A stretch of DNA of 38,482 nt from Desulfosoma sp. (lineage in GTDB: Bacteria; Desulfobacterota; Syntrophobacteria; Syntrophobacterales; DSM-9756): assembly GCA_037481835.1 (NCBI GenBank), contig JBBFKW010000021.1, forward strand, positions 1 through 38,482, written 5' to 3'. Position numbers: made by a program. Below, one piece after another: positions 3,001-9,000 of this stretch (positions are counted from its first letter, which is position 1; each line of letters starts with the position of its first letter).

Positions 3001-6000
3001 CCGGATCTTTTCGCCTATATTCTCTTAGCCGTCCTGGGTGCGGCGGCCTTCGCGGGCGCCGTGTTCACCGTGGACCGGGCAAGGGATTAGGCCGGGAAGG
3101 CGGCGCAGCGGCGCCGGACTGCAGAAGGGGCGAAACCCCCCTCGCCGACCCAAAAAGCCCGAACGGCAACTCAGGCTTGATGGGGAAGGCATCTTGTCGC
3201 AAATCTGTCCCTCAAGTAAGATAGCATCACAGAGCGGCATTGCAGCTGCGCCTGCAGGAGGCCGGCTGCGATGGCGACATCGCATCGCACCAAGAGGTCA
3301 ATCCCATGGGCATGAGCGTTTCTTTATACAGAAAACTGCAAAACGTGCCGCCGGACCTTCGTGAAGTGCTGCTCAGCCTCTTCGAAGAGGTCGAGCGCAA
3401 TCGTGAGGAATCGGTGTCCAAAAAAGAGTTTGTCGAGCTCAAGGAGGTGGTCCGTGAACTGGCGGATGCCCAGCTGAAGACCGACAAGCAACTAGGCGTT
3501 CTCACGGCCAAGGTGGAGGAGCTTGCGGAGGCGCAAAAACGCACCGAGACCCGTTTGAACGCTCTGGCGAGCAAAGTGGAGGAGCTGGCCGAAGCGCAAA
3601 AGCGGACGGAAGCTCGGCTGGAGGAGCTGGCCGAAGCCCAAAAGCGGACGGAAGCTCGGCTGGAGGAGCTGGCCGAAGCCCAGACACGGACGGAAAAAGA
3701 GGTGGCCAGCTTGGCCCGGGGTCTTAAAGTAACGCGGGAACAACTGGGCGGGCTTTCCAAAAGCATGGCCTATGCCCTGGAAAACGAAGCCTATCGGAAA
3801 CTTCCGGCCTACCTGGCTTCGGCGCACGGCATCCGGGTGAAGGAGCGGATCGTGCGGGCCGATGTTGCGGACGAGGAGATCAATTTCTTCGCAAGGGCGG
3901 AAAAAGACGGCAAGCCCGTGATTCTCGTCGGGGAATCGGTCCTCCGGTTGGATGATGCGTCCAAGTTGAAGAGCCTGATGGACAAAGTGGAGAAGGTGGG
4001 TTCGGTCTACGGGGACGAATTGGTGCCCATTTTGGTGACGCACTTTGCCAAACCCAAAGTGTTGGACAAGGCCCGACAGGCTGGCATTTGTGTCGTCCAA
4101 AGTTTCGAATGGGACGAGAGCCCCTGAAGCCGGGCGCGGGGAGAACCCCTACGACGAAGTGGGGTCCGCACGGCGGACGTTCCAGAAGGTTTTGGCGTAC
4201 TCTTCCGAAAGGATGCGGCGGTCGCCCACACGCACGGTCATGCCGATGGAATCCAGATAATCCAGGATGCTGAGGCCCCGAGTGCGGCCGAATCCAAAAA
4301 GATCCGCACAGTCGCCGACGGTGACGGCACCGTCTCGAAGAATCTTTGTTCGGACCTTCACCTTGATCTCTTCCAAAGCCTCTCGAGTCATGTAGCGGCC
4401 GTCCCGCAGGCGCACCAAGGTTTTTTGGGCCGTCAGATAGTCGACGAGTTTTTGGACCTCCGGCCGCGGATAGCGTTCGCCGTGATCGTCGCAGAAAGTG
4501 CCGACGGCGAAGGTCCGCCATCCCAACTTCTTTGCGTAATCCAGAATCCTTTGGACGATTTCCTGCTGGCGCCGCGGCAGGACCGTGACCCGATCGGGCA
4601 GCCGATACCCGCCCGAATCCCGGGTGACTGTGCCGCGGCCTTCCAAATCCGCCAAGACGTGCTCGACGACGGCGTCATCTATGGGAGCATCGACCCGGTG
4701 TCGGATTTCCTGCGGGGTCACGGTGGTTTTCAGGGGATTTTCGGCGAGGATTTCCGAAAGAGCCCTGAAAACTTCGCGGCTCAGGTGGCTGTAGGAATCC
4801 TTGGGCATGATGCGTTGGCCGCCGATCTGAACATAGCGTCCCTCTCGGCAGGCGCGTTCCACATGATCGGCGACGGTCCGAGACGGAAAGCCGGTCGCCC
4901 GCGTAATTTCCGTGAGGCTCACGGCGCGATGGCCCGTCCGTTCAAACAATTTGTTCACGGCGTTTGGGACGTCTTCGTGCATGAGGCAGCGCAGAAAAGG
5001 GATGACCTTGGATGCCTTGCGCTCACGATATTTTTGCCCGGAAACCTCCAAGACGATCCCTCCACCCAGCAGGGCTTCCAGATCCACGGAGCACATGACG
5101 AAGGGGTCCCGTGCCAAAGCCGCCGTGGCTCTTTCCAGGCGGAATTGCACCAGGCCGGACTCCCCAGGGGCCAAGGTTTCGCGCTCCATGAGAACGACAA
5201 CGGCGTTATGGCATCCCGTTCCCACGTGGATTTTTACCCGGGTCCTGTTCACGAGAGGGCGGGGGGCATATCGGGACATCTGCAGCCGAGCGTTGAGGTA
5301 GAAGGCCGGGGCAGCGTATTCGGGCGTTACGAGCGCCATGCCGTGATCCACCGCCTCTGTGGGCACCCCCCTCAGGTTGATCCCCGCGCGCATGCCCGCC
5401 TCGATGCGCGGGACCCGTTCGTGGTGCACTTCCAAAAATCGGGCCGTGACCACTTGGCGGGCCGGAAGCAGCTCCACGGGATCGCCTTCAGCAAGGGTTC
5501 CCGACAGGACCGTGCCGGAAACCACGGTGCCGAATCCCGCCGCCTGGATCACCCGATCGATCCATAGACGAAATACAGGGTGCACAGTCTCCGTGCGGAT
5601 CGAATTCGCGAGGCGTTGGATCTCACGGAGCACGGCTTTAAGCCCGCGGCCGTCTACGGCGGAAAAAGGAAGGATCGGACACCCCTCCAGGAACGTGTCG
5701 CGCACGAGGTCCCGAACTTCCATGGCCGCCAGTTCCAGGGTTTCTTCGTCCACCAAATCCGCTTTGCTCAGCACGACGAGACCGGTTGAGGCGCCCATGA
5801 ACCTCAGGATTTCCAGGTGATCCAGGGTTTGAGGCATGACGCCGTCGTCGGCGGCGACCACAAGGAGCGCCGCCCGCACGGTGCTCAAACCCCGGATGGT
5901 GTTTTTTCGGAAATCCTTGTGTCCCGGAACATCCATCAAGGCGATGCGGCGGCCGTCAGGGAGGACGAGAGGGGCCACGCCGGGTTCGATGGTCAAGCCG

Positions 6001-9000
6001 CGGCGTTTTTCTTCTTTCAATCGGTCCGTGTCCCAGCCGGTGAGGGCCTTTACCAGAGAGGTTTTGCCGTGATCCACATGGCCTGCGATGCCGATAAGGC
6101 ACGGGGGATTCATGGGCCTCCTTTCTGCGACTCAGCACACGGTCTTTGGGACCAACGTTTCACGAAACAGGCGGATCGCTTCCGGAACCGCTTTGCGGAC
6201 GAGCACAGGGCGTTCCATCCCTGCGCCCAAGCGGTCCTCTTCGTACCCGGGATGAGCCGGGAGCGGGGCCGGCGTTTCGGCGAGCGCCGCGGTGTCGTAA
6301 ATGGTCCGGTCGCAGGCCGCCTCGAGGAGCGGCTTTTTCGCAGCGGCGGGTCGGTCCACCCAACCCAATCGGGCCATGATTTCGAACCGGGCTTGGTCGA
6401 TGAGGTAAAAGTAGCCGTTGAGAAGTCGGCACAGGGTGTCCAGATCCTGAGACTCGAAGGCTTCTCCGTGGCCCAATCCCTGACAGACCATAATGAAATC
6501 ATAAAGAGCCGTTTGGGCCTCGTCGCTTTCGGAGGCAAAGGCGAGAAGCACCGAGCCGGGAAGATCCTTCCAGGTGGTCGATGCGTTCCACAGGCCTTGT
6601 CCAGGAAAGAGCCAGCGGCACAGGCGAAAAGCCCGGTCGGCCAGTTTGCGGTATTTGTACCCTTCGAGGGAGACCACATCGCCCATCAGTCGTTGCTTTT
6701 CATGAAATTGACGGCGTGCTCTGCCCATTGGAGGCCACCAATTGATGAGAAAAAAATCATTGGGATGCCGCTTTCTTTTGAAGAAGGGGCTCGGGTTCCC
6801 ACAAAGACGGATACAGGGGCCCCAGAGCTCTGATGCGATCGGTGATATCCCGGCAGCATTGAGCGAACTGCGGTCCCATGGAGGCGGAGTTGTAAACCAT
6901 TCCCACGCGTTCCGGTTCCACACCGAGCGCCTCCAGAAGCTTCTGCACTCGGGCGACCCGCTTGGCGGCTTTGAGGTTCCCGGAAATATAATGGCATTCG
7001 CCGGAAAGACAGCCGGAGACGTAAACGGCGTCGGCTCCTTGTTCCAGCGGCTTTAAGAGATGCACGACATCGACGCGTCCCGTGCAGGGCACGCGAACGA
7101 TGTAAACGTTCGGCGGATAGGACAAGCGCATGGCGCCGGCGAGATCCGCCGCCGTGTAGGAACACCATTGGCAGCAGTACAGAAGGATTTTGGGCTCGAA
7201 CCGTTGGGCTGTGGCCATGAGGAGTGCTCCCGACTGGAGGGGGCAAGGGGAATCGAACCTCCTCCCGGTTGATGAGACCGGGCCGACGGGTTTGCAGCCC
7301 GCGGGGCGCCCAGCGCCGTTGCCCCCGAAAACCGAAGTCCGCATCTGCGTGCCCGAATCCGATATGGCGGTTGGCTCTTACGACCACATCGGCCGATGTG
7401 TCAAATAGGTAATTTCGATAATCCAGGAGAGCCTCCTTCGGTTTTCGGCCGTCCGGGTTTTTTCGATTCTTGCACAGCGGCCGTCGGTGGCGTATGGTGG
7501 GCCGAAGGCAGAGTGAGGTAAGACGGGTAGAAGGACCATGAAAGAGGCGGCTTCAGCGGTGCAACCGGCTATGCCCATGATCCTTTTTCGGGGCGTGAAC
7601 AAGTGGTTCGGCCCCTTGCACGTGCTCAAGGACATCGACTTTACGGTGGATCCCGGGGAAGTGGTGGTGGTGTGCGGGCCGAGCGGGTCCGGAAAAAGCA
7701 CCATGATCCGGTGCATCAACAAGTTGGAGCCCATCCAAAAAGGGACCATCGTGGTGGACGGGATGGATCTGAGTGATCCCAAGACGGACATCACCAAGCT
7801 TCGGGCCGAAATCGGCTTCGTATTCCAGCAATTCAACCTGTACCCGCACATGACGGCTCTGGAAAACATCACGCTGGCGCCCATGAAGGTGCGCAAGATG
7901 TCCCGTCGGGAAGCCGAGGACATCGCCCTGGAAATCTTGGAAAAGGTGGGCATCCGCGAAAAAGCGCACCACTATCCGGCCCAGCTTTCCGGAGGCCAGC
8001 AGCAGCGGGTGGCCATCGCCCGAGGCTTGGCCATGCGGCCCAAGATCATGCTCTTCGATGAGCCCACGTCGGCCCTGGACCCGGAGATGATCAACGAGGT
8101 CTTGGATGTCATGAAGAATTTGGCCAAGGAAGGGATGACCATGGTGGTGGTCACCCACGAAATGGGCTTCGCACGGGAGGTGGCCCACCGCGTGGTGTTC
8201 ATGGACGAGGGGCGTCTCATCGAGAGCGCGCCTCCGGAGGAGTTCTTTTCAAACCCGCAGAACGAGCGGACTCGGTTGTTTTTGAGCAAGATCCTGACGC
8301 ACTAGGGGTTCTGGCTCCGGGCGTGGGGCCCGGGGCTTTGCGGCGGCAGCGGTTTTTCAGGCAACGTGGGGGAGAGAACCGATGGAGATCGCCATTCATG
8401 CTGTGGAGCCGGGGCGCAGAAAGGCGCGGCCGGCGGATGCGGGATTGGTTTTCGGCAAAGTCTTTACCGACCACATGTTTGTCATGGATTACAAGACAGG
8501 TGACGGCTGGGGGAACGCGCGAATCGTCCCCTACGGTCCGCTTTCCTTGGATCCCGCGGCCATGGTGCTTCACTACGGTCAGGGCATCTTCGAGGGCCTC
8601 AAGGCATATCGGTGTCCCGACGGACGCATCCACCTCTTTCGCCCCTTGGAGAACATGAACCGCTTTAATCGGTCCGCGCGGCGCATGTGCATGCCGGAAG
8701 TGGATGCCCGCTTCCATCTCCAGGCCGTCGAAACTCTAATACGCCTCGATGCGGACTGGGTGCCGCGCAGCAAAGGGGCCTCCCTTTATATCCGCCCGAC
8801 CATGATCGCTTCCGAGCCGCACCTTGGGGTGCGCCCGGCGGCGGAATACATCCATTACGTCATCACAGGGCCGGTAGGGGCTTATTATCCGGAAGGTTTC
8901 AATCCCGTGAAGATTTACGTCACGGACGAGTATGTCAGGGCTGTCCGGGGCGGGGTCGGGGAAGCCAAGACCATGGCCAACTACGCGGCGAGTCTTTACG

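Follow-up and report, generated by a model that had tools for sequence, protein, structure and literature searches.

A tRNASec-shaped tRNA-Cys(GCA), named tRNAReC, was described to read UGA with a SECIS as Cys via SelB (Vargas-Rodriguez 2018, as cited in PMC11415595 and PMC13582414), and such a tRNA is carried by SelB and not by EF-Tu (PMC11415595, PMC13582414, PMC5389517). Charging by CysRS and Cys insertion at UGA/SECIS were reported there for other species only (PMC5389517, PMC11415595), and a GCA anticodon was described to read UGA in another organism, with SelB rather than SelB* (PMC11415595, PMC13582414). tRNAReC was also reported to be enriched in genomes with UXXU hydrogenases (PMC13582414). 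A second selB 'downstream' of a selC* tRNA-Cys is already in print (Mukai et al. 2017, PMC5389517). The selC*/selB* pair, which the preliminary description had called unexplained, is not wholly so, since Cys decoding at UGA by tRNAReC has been published (as cited in PMC11415595 and PMC13582414). MvhD, hydrogenase and heterodisulfide were not mentioned beside selC*/selB* in the text of PMC5389517 (section 17 and a term search) or in passages of PMC7609411. Finally, in Aeromonas salmonicida a tRNASec(GCA) inserts Sec at a recoded Cys codon (Mukai 2016, as cited in PMC11415595).

The window, which is the whole stretch of 38,482 nucleotides analysed here from a Desulfosoma sp., carried on its minus strand the order selC* tRNA-Cys, mvhD*, unk184 and selB* with gaps of 16, 70 and 18 nt (Table 1). 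Gene-order comparison showed the same four-gene order with a 92-nt tRNA-Cys(gca) in six further genomes of the nine-genome family, which bore out the seven of nine claimed before; the two exceptions were G001, where the locus was rearranged, and G005, which had no module. A scan of the locus called neither a promoter within the unit nor a terminator between its genes, and the 16- and 18-nt gaps had space for barely more than a ribosome-binding site. Overall, the results supported one tightly spaced, co-oriented unit of four genes, conserved in seven of the nine family genomes. A block (...ACCTATTTGACA...GGTCGTAAG...) located 5' of the tRNA was kept in the three nearest genomes (G000, G008 and G006). 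The promoter-like element in Table 1 is considered a putative promoter only, because the consensus scan did not call it. In common with the selC*/tRNAReC system in print, the locus had the 8/4 tRNASec shape, the bulged A, GCA, U73, a second selB downstream, a Syntrophobacterales host and a full selABCD set, but it differed in having mvhD* and unk184 between the tRNA and selB*, where the published text says 'downstream' only (PMC5389517).

Table 1. Features of the selC*-mvhD*-unk184-selB* locus (positions in the window).
Feature	Position	Strand	Basis or remark
Promoter-like TTGACA-N18-TAAGAG	7375..7404	-	Read from sequence; ends 48 nt 5' of the tRNA
selC* tRNA-Cys(GCA), 92 nt, U73, encoded CCA	7235..7326	-	ARAGORN, Rfam
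mvhD*, 153-aa Cys-type MvhD/FlpD	6757..7218	-	Pfam PF02662
unk184, 184-aa all-helical protein of no described family	6132..6686	-	Conserved downstream partner of mvhD*
selB*, 654-aa SelB paralogue, preceded by AAGGAGG	4149..6113	-	TIGR00475, Pfam

The only tRNA called in the window by ARAGORN was the 92-nt tRNA-Cys(gca), and Rfam matched tRNA-Sec (RF01852) at 7239..7326 of the minus strand with 53.1 bits against a gathering score of 47, the tRNASec-like D arm being kept in this match. Reading of the sequence showed an acceptor stem of 8 bp (GGGGGCAA/UUGCCCCC) and a T stem of 4 bp with a bulged A (GG(A)GG/CCCC), which together with a long variable arm make up a tRNASec-like fold. The 3' end was ...GCCCCC-U-CCA, therefore the discriminator is U73. 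Cys identity of such tRNAs is recognised by U73 with a GCA or UCA anticodon (PMC7609411, PMC13582414), U73 and GCA being identity elements of CysRS (PMC7609411). selC* is a cysteine-identity tRNA (GCA, U73) in a tRNASec shape, and the length, anticodon and discriminator given for it earlier were all confirmed. Near-identical tRNAs were found in six family genomes. In G001, of the same family, the tRNA was a variant with UCA and A73 and the SelB* had a degenerate switch-I region, so the selC*/selB* system is evolutionarily labile. The A. salmonicida tRNA shares GCA on a tRNASec shape and a SelB-type factor with the window, but it has Sec identity and a SECIS after its target codon (PMC11415595), whereas the identity of the tRNA in the window is Cys (U73) and its candidate codon is followed by no hairpin.

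The selB* product was assigned to selB in NCBIfam (TIGR00475, E 1.9e-82, 277.8 bits against a cut-off of 242) and contained the Pfam domains GTP_EFTU, GTP_EFTU_D2, Beta-barrel_SelB and SelB-wing_3 (residues 593-635), in agreement with the preliminary description. The EF-Tu-like G domain, domains 2 and 3 and the C-terminal winged helices of SelB were all present, and E. coli SelB (5lzb_z) aligned end to end with residues 6-636. SelB* is a second copy adjacent to selC* and distinct from the canonical SelB of the genome (contig C8), to which it was 34% identical, while identity to its SelB* relatives was 41-81%. For the pocket residues with described roles in SelB (Phe45, Asp185-Arg241 and Arg181; PMC4605307), the Asp, the Arg236 equivalent and Arg181 of the Sec pocket were kept in the SelB* of the window and the Phe45 equivalent was Val. 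At this position SelB* proteins had Val or Ile, all six canonical SelBs had Phe, and the Arg181 equivalent was Gln in five other SelB*. Judged by these substitutions, selB* encodes a diverged SelB with a putatively altered aminoacyl pocket.

MvhD* showed a full-length FlpD domain (Pfam PF02662, positions 1-123 of 123, E 2.5e-48), and its residues 5-135 aligned to solved MvhD chains (7bkb_F and 5odc_D, E 1e-39 to 1e-40). A GGAG was located between the tRNA 3' end and the mvhD* ATG. C15, C16, C19, C45, C70 and C75 were invariant in 21 orthologues, which is the same six-Cys pattern (CCxxC...C...CxxxxC) as in the MvhD of HdrABC-MvhAGD and MetFV-HdrABC-MvhD; however, MvhD* stands by itself, its gene neighbouring that of an orphan 184-aa protein instead of hdrA or mvhAG. 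No HdrA-type partner gene was found in the operon or in its flanks within the window. The protein is all Cys, with TGT for Cys19 and Cys70. A paralogue at C13:142898-143290 had TGA at the Cys70 position, as claimed before, while a closer paralogue at C5:148738-149151 had TGA at the Cys19 position instead. The latter was 59.6% identical to MvhD* by tblastn (63% over residues 3-132), fell in one clade with it (support 100/99) and lay directly 5' of metV (PF12225) and metF (PF02219). Its orthologue with one TGA was present in 9/9 family genomes at 83-99% identity, and MvhD* orthologues were 55-67% identical to this Sec-type MvhD. MvhD* is the all-Cys sister of the Sec-type MvhD of the mvhD(Sec)-metV-metF cluster in the same genome, which also has selA, selB, selC and a selD with one TGA. 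In Methanococcus, Cys isoforms are reported to be made only without selenium (VhcD has Cys and VhuD has Sec, both of the MvhD family). As there, Sec-type and Cys-type MvhD-family subunits occur here in one genome and, of the two, the Cys type evolves faster and is the accessory copy. The window differs in that its host is bacterial, the gene for the Cys copy is bundled with those for a tRNA and an elongation factor, and control by selenium is a prediction.

The 184-aa ORF had no match in Pfam or NCBIfam, in keeping with its earlier description as a protein of no family. Its start, MG(D/R)VV, was backed by homologues. The AF2 model had a pLDDT of 90.9; against the PDB the best Foldseek E value was 0.76 and the best Z score of VIA (wide) was 3.4, and all Atlas neighbours were labelled 'hypothetical protein'. 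The family comprised 189 representative clusters among 1.84 billion proteins. Its spread through the phylum was as reported, though the recount gave 70 of 401 genomes in place of 69. mvhD* was directly 5' of unk184 in 19/25 A-type loci, and unk184 accompanies MvhD* as a dedicated partner. mvhD*-unk184 occurred without selC*/selB* at no fewer than 11 further Syntrophobacteraceae loci, scored where 4 kb or more of flank was available, and four of five such genomes contained canonical SelB only and no SelB*. In other genomes mvhD*-unk184 was followed by HdrA-like, HdrD-like or Fdh-like genes. The two genes are an independent, wider module, mostly without selC*/selB* and the older one; MvhD* therefore does not need the pair.

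A total of 46 SelB* loci, phylogenetically non-independent and four of them from the family of the window (Desulfosoma, Desulfacinum), were collected with a SelB*-specific motif. A selC* tRNA was directly upstream in 41 of them (11 GCA and 30 UCA, all with U before CCA). MvhD, HdrD-like (Fer4+CCG) or HdrA genes were located within 2 kb upstream at 18/46 loci in at least five arrangements: tRNA-mvhD*-unk184-selB*, tRNA(UCA)-mvhD*-selB*, tRNA-hdrD-like-selB*, mvhD-hdrD-like-tRNA-selB* and hdrA/mvhD-tRNA-selB*. Four more loci had Fdh-like genes (Molydop_binding with Fer4_11, one with Fer4_11 only) and one had an AIRS/AIRS_C (SelD-like) gene upstream. No regulator was shared among the SelB* loci, with a LysR gene upstream in only 2/46, plus L146 and L148. 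Linkage of selC*/selB* to Hdr/Mvh/Fdh genes is general across lineages and not special to the enclosure in the window. The proposed link of the pair to a protein with a selenoprotein paralogue stood as far as the unit was conserved and MvhD* was Cys-type with TGA-bearing paralogues; its specificity did not, as mvhD*-unk184 occurs mostly without the pair and the pair lies beside varied Hdr/Mvh/Fdh genes.

The reading preferred here, with somewhat less than even confidence, is that the four genes together make up a 'Cys-mode' cassette that is independent of selenium. Selenium shortage would switch the operon on, and the operon would supply a Cys isoform of MvhD and a helper for Hdr/Mvh/MetFV-type complexes. 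It would also supply the tRNA/SelB* pair, by which remaining UGA-containing mRNAs would be read through with Cys; in this genome these would be MvhD-U19, MvhD-U70 and SelD, which itself carries a TGA, and HdrA- and FdhA-type selenoprotein mRNAs may be served as well. The enclosed genes would be co-regulated cargo and not decoding targets. mvhD*-unk184 would be the older part, to which selC*/selB* would have been joined both in the lineage of Desulfosoma and Desulfacinum and in a single other genome of the Syntrophobacteraceae.

It appears unlikely that SelB* and selC* instead serve the selenoprotein mRNAs of neighbouring Hdr/Mvh/Fdh genes, with a subset of SECIS recognised and the Cys:Sec ratio set at all times, such that linkage would reflect shared targets and not regulation. 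The 18 Hdr/Mvh-adjacent and four Fdh-adjacent loci, the SelB-wing_3 kept at residues 593-635 and the enrichment of tRNAReC where UXXU hydrogenases occur (PMC13582414) are consistent with such recoding. However, the genes lying directly inside the enclosures, namely mvhD*, unk184 and, in L146/L161, the hdrD-like gene, had no in-frame TGA, and no SelB*-specific hairpin was found. Any targets would need to be encoded at other sites of the genome.

Hitch-hiking is also improbable as an account of the locus; here selC*/selB* would be functionally unrelated to mvhD*-unk184. In one lineage the pair would have been split by, or inserted around, these two genes, which already stood together, and descent would have kept the order. 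The seven family genomes are close kin, mvhD*-unk184 occurs mostly without the pair, and 28/46 SelB* loci had no Hdr/Mvh gene within 2 kb, all of which would fit descent. Against this, the enclosure repeats outside the family (L045/L227, and L225 of Desulfobacteraceae with a UCA tRNA), and different Hdr/Mvh genes were linked in the five or more arrangements, whereas such neighbours would be expected at approximately 2.6% of positions in G000 and were found at 0/6 canonical selB loci. The narrow 16- and 18-nt gaps and the lack of called internal signals likewise argue against it.

As had been noted before, no hairpin was conserved after the MvhD* Cys codons in a structure-conservation check against shuffled alignments (for codon 19, a structure conservation index of ≤0.5 compared to at most 0.49 after shuffling), and the stem that forms the SECIS in the C5 paralogue was destroyed in mvhD*. 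Codon 19 was TGT in 9/9 genomes with linked selC*/selB* and in 3/13 unlinked ones, compared to a genome-wide TGT share of approximately 28% of Cys codons. The Cys45 and Cys75 codons were equally conserved, as TGC. SelB* was absent from the three unlinked genomes with TGT19; G001 and L225 had TGT19 as well despite their UCA tRNAs, and the UCA-type locus L225 encloses an mvhD* without TGA. The selC*/selB* pair probably does not decode the MvhD* that it encloses, because no hairpin was conserved, TGT19 occurs without SelB* and the mvhD* of a UCA-type locus lacks TGA. That SelB* brings selC*(GCA) to UGU19, charged with Cys or with Sec after Ser-to-Sec conversion so that MvhD* would be specially decoded and possibly selenium-containing, is highly improbable: the alignment of Cys19 with the Sec of the closest paralogue, the TGT19 bias, the Asp-Arg salt bridge kept in the Sec pocket of SelB*, the tRNASec-like D arm and the A. 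salmonicida precedent (PMC11415595) favour it, but the CysRS identity elements U73 and GCA (PMC7609411) and the codon and hairpin results above do not.

For a SelB paralogue with a tRNASec-shaped tRNA-Cys, heterologous suppression data and bare gene adjacency are in print. The locus in the window and the 18/46 Hdr/Mvh-adjacent SelB* loci give selC*/selB* a concrete metabolic context, with two testable targets, the MvhD-U19 encoded in the MetFV cluster and the UGA-containing SelD, and with cultured hosts among the carriers (Desulfacinum hydrothermale DSM 13146 and D. infernum DSM 9756). A new small family (189 representative clusters) with no recognised fold relative also emerged as a specific companion of one MvhD subfamily. 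The locus is a variant of a known recoding system. The results suggest that the known Cys-for-Sec recoding forms part of a back-up by which redox enzymes of the Hdr/Mvh type can do without selenium. It is possible, if rather doubtful, that selC*/SelB*, rather than being an isolated peculiarity, is the translational arm of a conserved selenium-sparing programme for flavin-based electron-bifurcating Hdr, Mvh, MetFV and Fdh enzymes in Desulfobacterota, one that would unite Cys-isoform subunits, the orphan-fold MvhD* partner unk184 and UGA-to-Cys recoding in one transcription unit. In a bolder form, SelB* may read a private signal, and particular Hdr/Mvh codons may be decoded by a second, factor-dependent route.

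The operon consists of four genes on one strand: a tRNASec-shaped tRNA-Cys (selC*), an MvhD gene whose product is of the all-Cys type (mvhD*), an orphan gene for a protein of 184 aa (unk184) and a paralogue of selB (selB*). selC* matched the Rfam tRNA-Sec model with 53.1 bits (gathering score of 47). Direct reading of the tRNA showed an acceptor stem of 8 bp (GGGGGCAA/UUGCCCCC), a long variable arm and a T stem GG(A)GG/CCCC in which one A is bulged, together with the anticodon GCA and a U before the encoded CCA, and it corresponds to the 'modified 8/4' selC* tRNA-Cys as described in the text of Mukai et al. 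(PMC5389517). The start of mvhD* was 16 nt past the tRNA with GGAG in front, while selB* started 18 nt after unk184 behind AAGGAGG. The flanking genes were unrelated to the operon: one flank holds an ABC transporter and a coiled-coil protein, and the opposite flank holds an aminotransferase, a dehydrogenase and the ATPase of an amino-acid ABC system. The 295-aa protein that is convergent with the end of selB* contains near-perfect repeats of a 14-residue unit.

Features of the operon and of the adjoining repeat protein in the window
Feature	Position	Strand	Evidence or remark
selC*, tRNA-Cys(gca), 92 nt	7235..7326	-	ARAGORN; sole tRNA of the window
mvhD*, 153-aa MvhD/FlpD	6757..7218	-	PF02662, E 2.5e-48
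unk184, 184-aa ORF	6132..6686	-	start 70 nt beyond mvhD*
selB*, 654-aa SelB homologue	4149..6113	-	TIGR00475, 277.8 bits against a cut-off of 242, E 1.9e-82
295-aa coiled-coil protein	3240..4127	+	just weak SMC and tape-measure matches

A TTGACA-N18-TAAGAG element ended 48 nt upstream of selC*, inside a block conserved across the three closest genomes. A consensus scan for promoters and terminators returned 0 promoters and 0 intergenic terminators, and this element was likewise uncalled. The palindrome ACATCGGCCGATGT in the promoter spacer was dismissed, being absent as a conserved feature from G008 and G006. In the family genomes G007, G004 and G002 (loci L020:3960-4150, L021 and L022), the DNA upstream of selC* contained a conserved mini-ORF of 8 codons, M(V/A)RL(L/F/V)GFT-stop, behind GAGGAG, followed by a near-identical stretch of approximately 60 nt (CACCCGTGCCAGGTAGGCAGTGGGCCGATCTGGAAGGCGCG...) that lies about 70 nt before the tRNA. 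A search of Rfam with these three upstream regions gave no known RNA family at E up to 0.1; in Desulfacinum-type genomes, the mini-ORF and the 60-nt stretch may serve the operon as a leader or as a regulatory RNA.

The order tRNA-Cys(gca, 92 nt)-mvhD*-unk184-selB* was present in seven of the nine genomes of the family (G000, which holds the window, G008, G006, G007, G004, G002 and G003), as the preliminary description had claimed. All four genes were absent from G005. In G001, mvhD*-unk184 was divergent from a related tRNA with a UCA anticodon and A73, and the SelB* there was 40% identical with an unalignable switch-I region (locus L023 on G001:C12; tRNA at 7262-7353, selB-like gene at 7523-9403); a canonical tRNA-Sec was found elsewhere in this genome. 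Across the phylum, 70 of the 401 genomes sampled contained the 184-aa family.

The genome also carries a canonical set of tRNA-Sec (contig C2), tRNA-Cys (C10) and SelB (C8; 34% identical to SelB*), in addition to selA (C1) and selD (C9). The selD gene (C9:80257-81183) has one in-frame TGA, which makes SelD a selenoprotein in its own right, and recoding of UGA to Cys could rescue it upon selenium exhaustion. About 13 MvhD paralogues were identified, two of them with an in-frame TGA. The earlier claim that mvhD* has TGT where a paralogue has TGA held, as the TGA of the C13:142898-143290 paralogue aligned with Cys70 of MvhD*, where the codon is TGT. The closest paralogue, at C5:148738-149151 (59.6% in tblastn), has its TGA opposite Cys19, at residue 16 of its own protein and followed by a 7-bp hairpin. 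Cys19 and Cys70 of MvhD* are both encoded by TGT and the remaining six Cys by TGC.

In a maximum-likelihood tree built from 34 MvhD sequences, a single clade (support 100/99) united all MvhD* orthologues, the MvhD* of the Desulfobacteraceae locus L225 and the C5 paralogue of the Sec type; support within this clade was weak, and one long branch was flagged. The C5 gene is directly upstream of metV (PF12225) and metF (PF02219) (G000:C5:148738-150900, equal to L029:4739-6905) and thereby identifies itself as the MvhD of a methylene-tetrahydrofolate reductase module of the MetFV type. Preceding mvhD-metV-metF are genes for a histidine kinase and for a response regulator of the sigma-54 kind. Orthologues of the C5 gene with exactly one TGA were present in all nine family genomes, G005 included, at 83-99% identity, whereas MvhD* orthologues shared just 55-67% identity with the C5 MvhD; the conserved selenoprotein thus has in MvhD* a Cys sister that evolves faster. 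A TGA-containing relative (63-68% identity) was also found in 5/5 genomes where mvhD*-unk184 occurs unlinked to the selC*/selB* pair.

Two subfamilies of unk184 were identified, the A type of the operon and a 27% identical B type, encoded on C12. In 4/4 genomes inspected, the B-type gene (G000:C12:20937-21455; L026-L028) has two constant neighbours, an MFS transporter and a gene that begins MPKERFHMLL; a relation of this paralogue to selenium was dismissed. unk184 had no match in Pfam or NCBIfam. Searched with a profile, 1.84 billion representatives yielded 189 proteins (E up to 0.001); almost all are close to 180 aa long, and domain fusions were absent. AlphaFold models it confidently as all-helical (pLDDT 90.9), and no convincing PDB neighbour was found by Foldseek (best E 0.76) or by VIA-align over 48,161 chains (best Z 3.4); every neighbour in the Atlas was a 'hypothetical protein'. 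The invariant residues include D97, R100, F101, E102, R106, W109, H145 and P146, and no Cys is conserved.

A survey of 68 loci with unk184 relatives included 25 of the A type (at least 37% identical). An MvhD* orthologue (61-83% identical) was directly upstream in 19 of these 25; of the others, one had a 44% MvhD, three had none and two had upstream DNA too short to judge. selC* and selB* were present in just 5 of the 19 mvhD*-unk184 loci, 11 whose downstream flank spans 4 kb or more lacked selB*, and three more were not judgeable. Searches of five unlinked genomes as a whole found only a canonical SelB (31-34% identical) in four, while in the fifth a SelB* was located at another site, right behind a selC*(GCA) that itself follows an HdrA-MvhD fusion gene. 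Downstream of unlinked mvhD*-unk184 came genes of three kinds, for an HdrD-like protein of 440 aa (Fer4 and CCG), for a flavoprotein resembling HdrA, or for a molybdopterin protein (FdhA/NuoG-like) accompanied by one that is GltD-like. This places MvhD* and unk184 in electron-transfer complexes of the Hdr/Mvh/Fdh type; as they occur in genomes without selC*/selB*, they are independent of the pair. Of the two modules, mvhD*-unk184 is the older. This independence is what would be expected if the two unrelated gene pairs had been brought together by hitch-hiking.

The neighbourhoods of selB* make hitch-hiking unlikely. A SelB*-specific switch-I motif, EEKxRGL[ST]IE[PS]G[VI]A, searched as a degenerate DNA pattern, gave 46 loci, which are non-independent, four being from the window's own family. 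A tRNASec-shaped tRNA was found just upstream of selB* in 41 of them (11 GCA and 30 UCA, all with U before CCA). An MvhD, HdrD-like or HdrA gene was within 2 kb upstream in 18/46, in at least five arrangements, including tRNA(UCA)-mvhD*-selB* with unk184 absent (L225) and tRNA-hdrD-like-selB* in Desulfobacterales. As controls, such neighbours were found at none of six canonical selB loci, and the chance background was approximately 2.6% of positions in G000. Despite the non-independence of the loci, the variety of arrangements speaks for the linkage of selC*/selB* with Hdr/Mvh genes having been retained repeatedly. Other upstream genes, assigned with Pfam, were Fdh-like at four UCA-type loci (L231, L246, L260 and L270; Molydop_binding and Fer4_11, with Fer4_11 alone in one), SelD-like (AIRS/AIRS_C) at L261 of Syntrophales, or unrelated at further loci. 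HgdC/HgdB-like genes were upstream of selC*/selB* at L228 and L254 (Desulfomonile). LysR was dismissed as a shared regulator since just 2/46 loci have one. Three SelB* genes, L234 (equal to L099), L233 and L250, had a single internal stop (TAA at the residue-555 equivalent, TAG at 178 and TGA at 514, respectively) and may be pseudogenes or assembly errors. The in-frame stops of SelB* genes were natural ends or scattered TAA, TAG and TGA that share no site.

SelB* aligned end to end with E. coli SelB. According to the text of PMC4605307, the Sec pocket is formed by an Asp185-Arg241 salt bridge stacked on Phe45, together with Arg181 (E. coli numbering) and Arg30. SelB* retained the Asp and the Arg236/241 equivalent. 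The Phe45 equivalent was Val or Ile across the SelB* clade and Phe in 6/6 canonical SelBs, while the Arg181 equivalent was Arg in the window's SelB* and Gln in five others. The pocket of SelB* is unlike the canonical one and would suit a thiol(ate) side chain.

A private recoding system is improbable to the same degree as hitch-hiking. Cys19 is TGT in 9/9 linked genomes and 3/13 unlinked, the latter three without SelB*; TGT19 was rejected as a decisive mark of special decoding because Cys45 and Cys75 show the same degree of fixation, as TGC, and because of those three genomes. Single-sequence folds of the 70 nt past codon 19 gave no SECIS-like hairpin common to the nine mvhD* orthologues and the Sec paralogue, whose hairpin is destroyed in mvhD*. 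With sliding RNAalifold over codons 10-132 of the nine sequences, the structure conservation index never exceeded 0.5, no better than column shuffles, which reached up to 0.49. L225 and G001 have UCA tRNAs, yet their mvhD* has TGT19 and zero TGA. For these reasons, and because unk184 lacks a conserved Cys, the enclosed mvhD* is probably not the decoding target of selC*/selB*. Recoding of UGU19 in mvhD* as a sense codon is, on the same observations, very improbable.

The text of Mukai et al. (PMC5389517) describes selC*, with selB* 'downstream of' it in Syntrophobacterales and Desulfobacterales and cysS* accompanying UCA tRNAs, and passages of a 2020 review (PMC7609411) restate this account. 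As cited in passages of PMC11415595 and PMC13582414, Vargas-Rodriguez 2018 reported that EF-Tu refuses a tRNASec-shaped tRNA-Cys(GCA), that SelB carries it, and that it decodes UGA as Cys ahead of a SECIS. In its wording, as distinct from its figures, the main text of PMC5389517 makes no mention of mvhD, hydrogenase, heterodisulfide, SECIS or hairpin, and the wording of its supplement makes none of mvhD, hydrogenase, SelB, SECIS or Syntrophobacter. The literature searches made returned no paper connecting SelB, MvhD, tRNACys, HdrA and selenium limitation.

Overall, the best-supported explanation, which we favour tentatively, is that the operon is a selenium-independent cassette. It would provide a Cys isoform of MvhD with unk184 as a putative helper, and a tRNA/SelB* pair that would read UGA-Sec codons as Cys, the UGA of selD included. 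The anatomy of the operon, its conservation, the Sec/Cys sister relation and the enrichment of Hdr/Mvh neighbours were observed directly. Decoding of UGA as Cys by the window's selC* is presumed from what is in print for this tRNA type, and we infer which mRNAs are its targets and that the genes respond jointly to selenium. Rather than a new kind of system, the finding, which is real, supplies context for the known selC*/selB* system.
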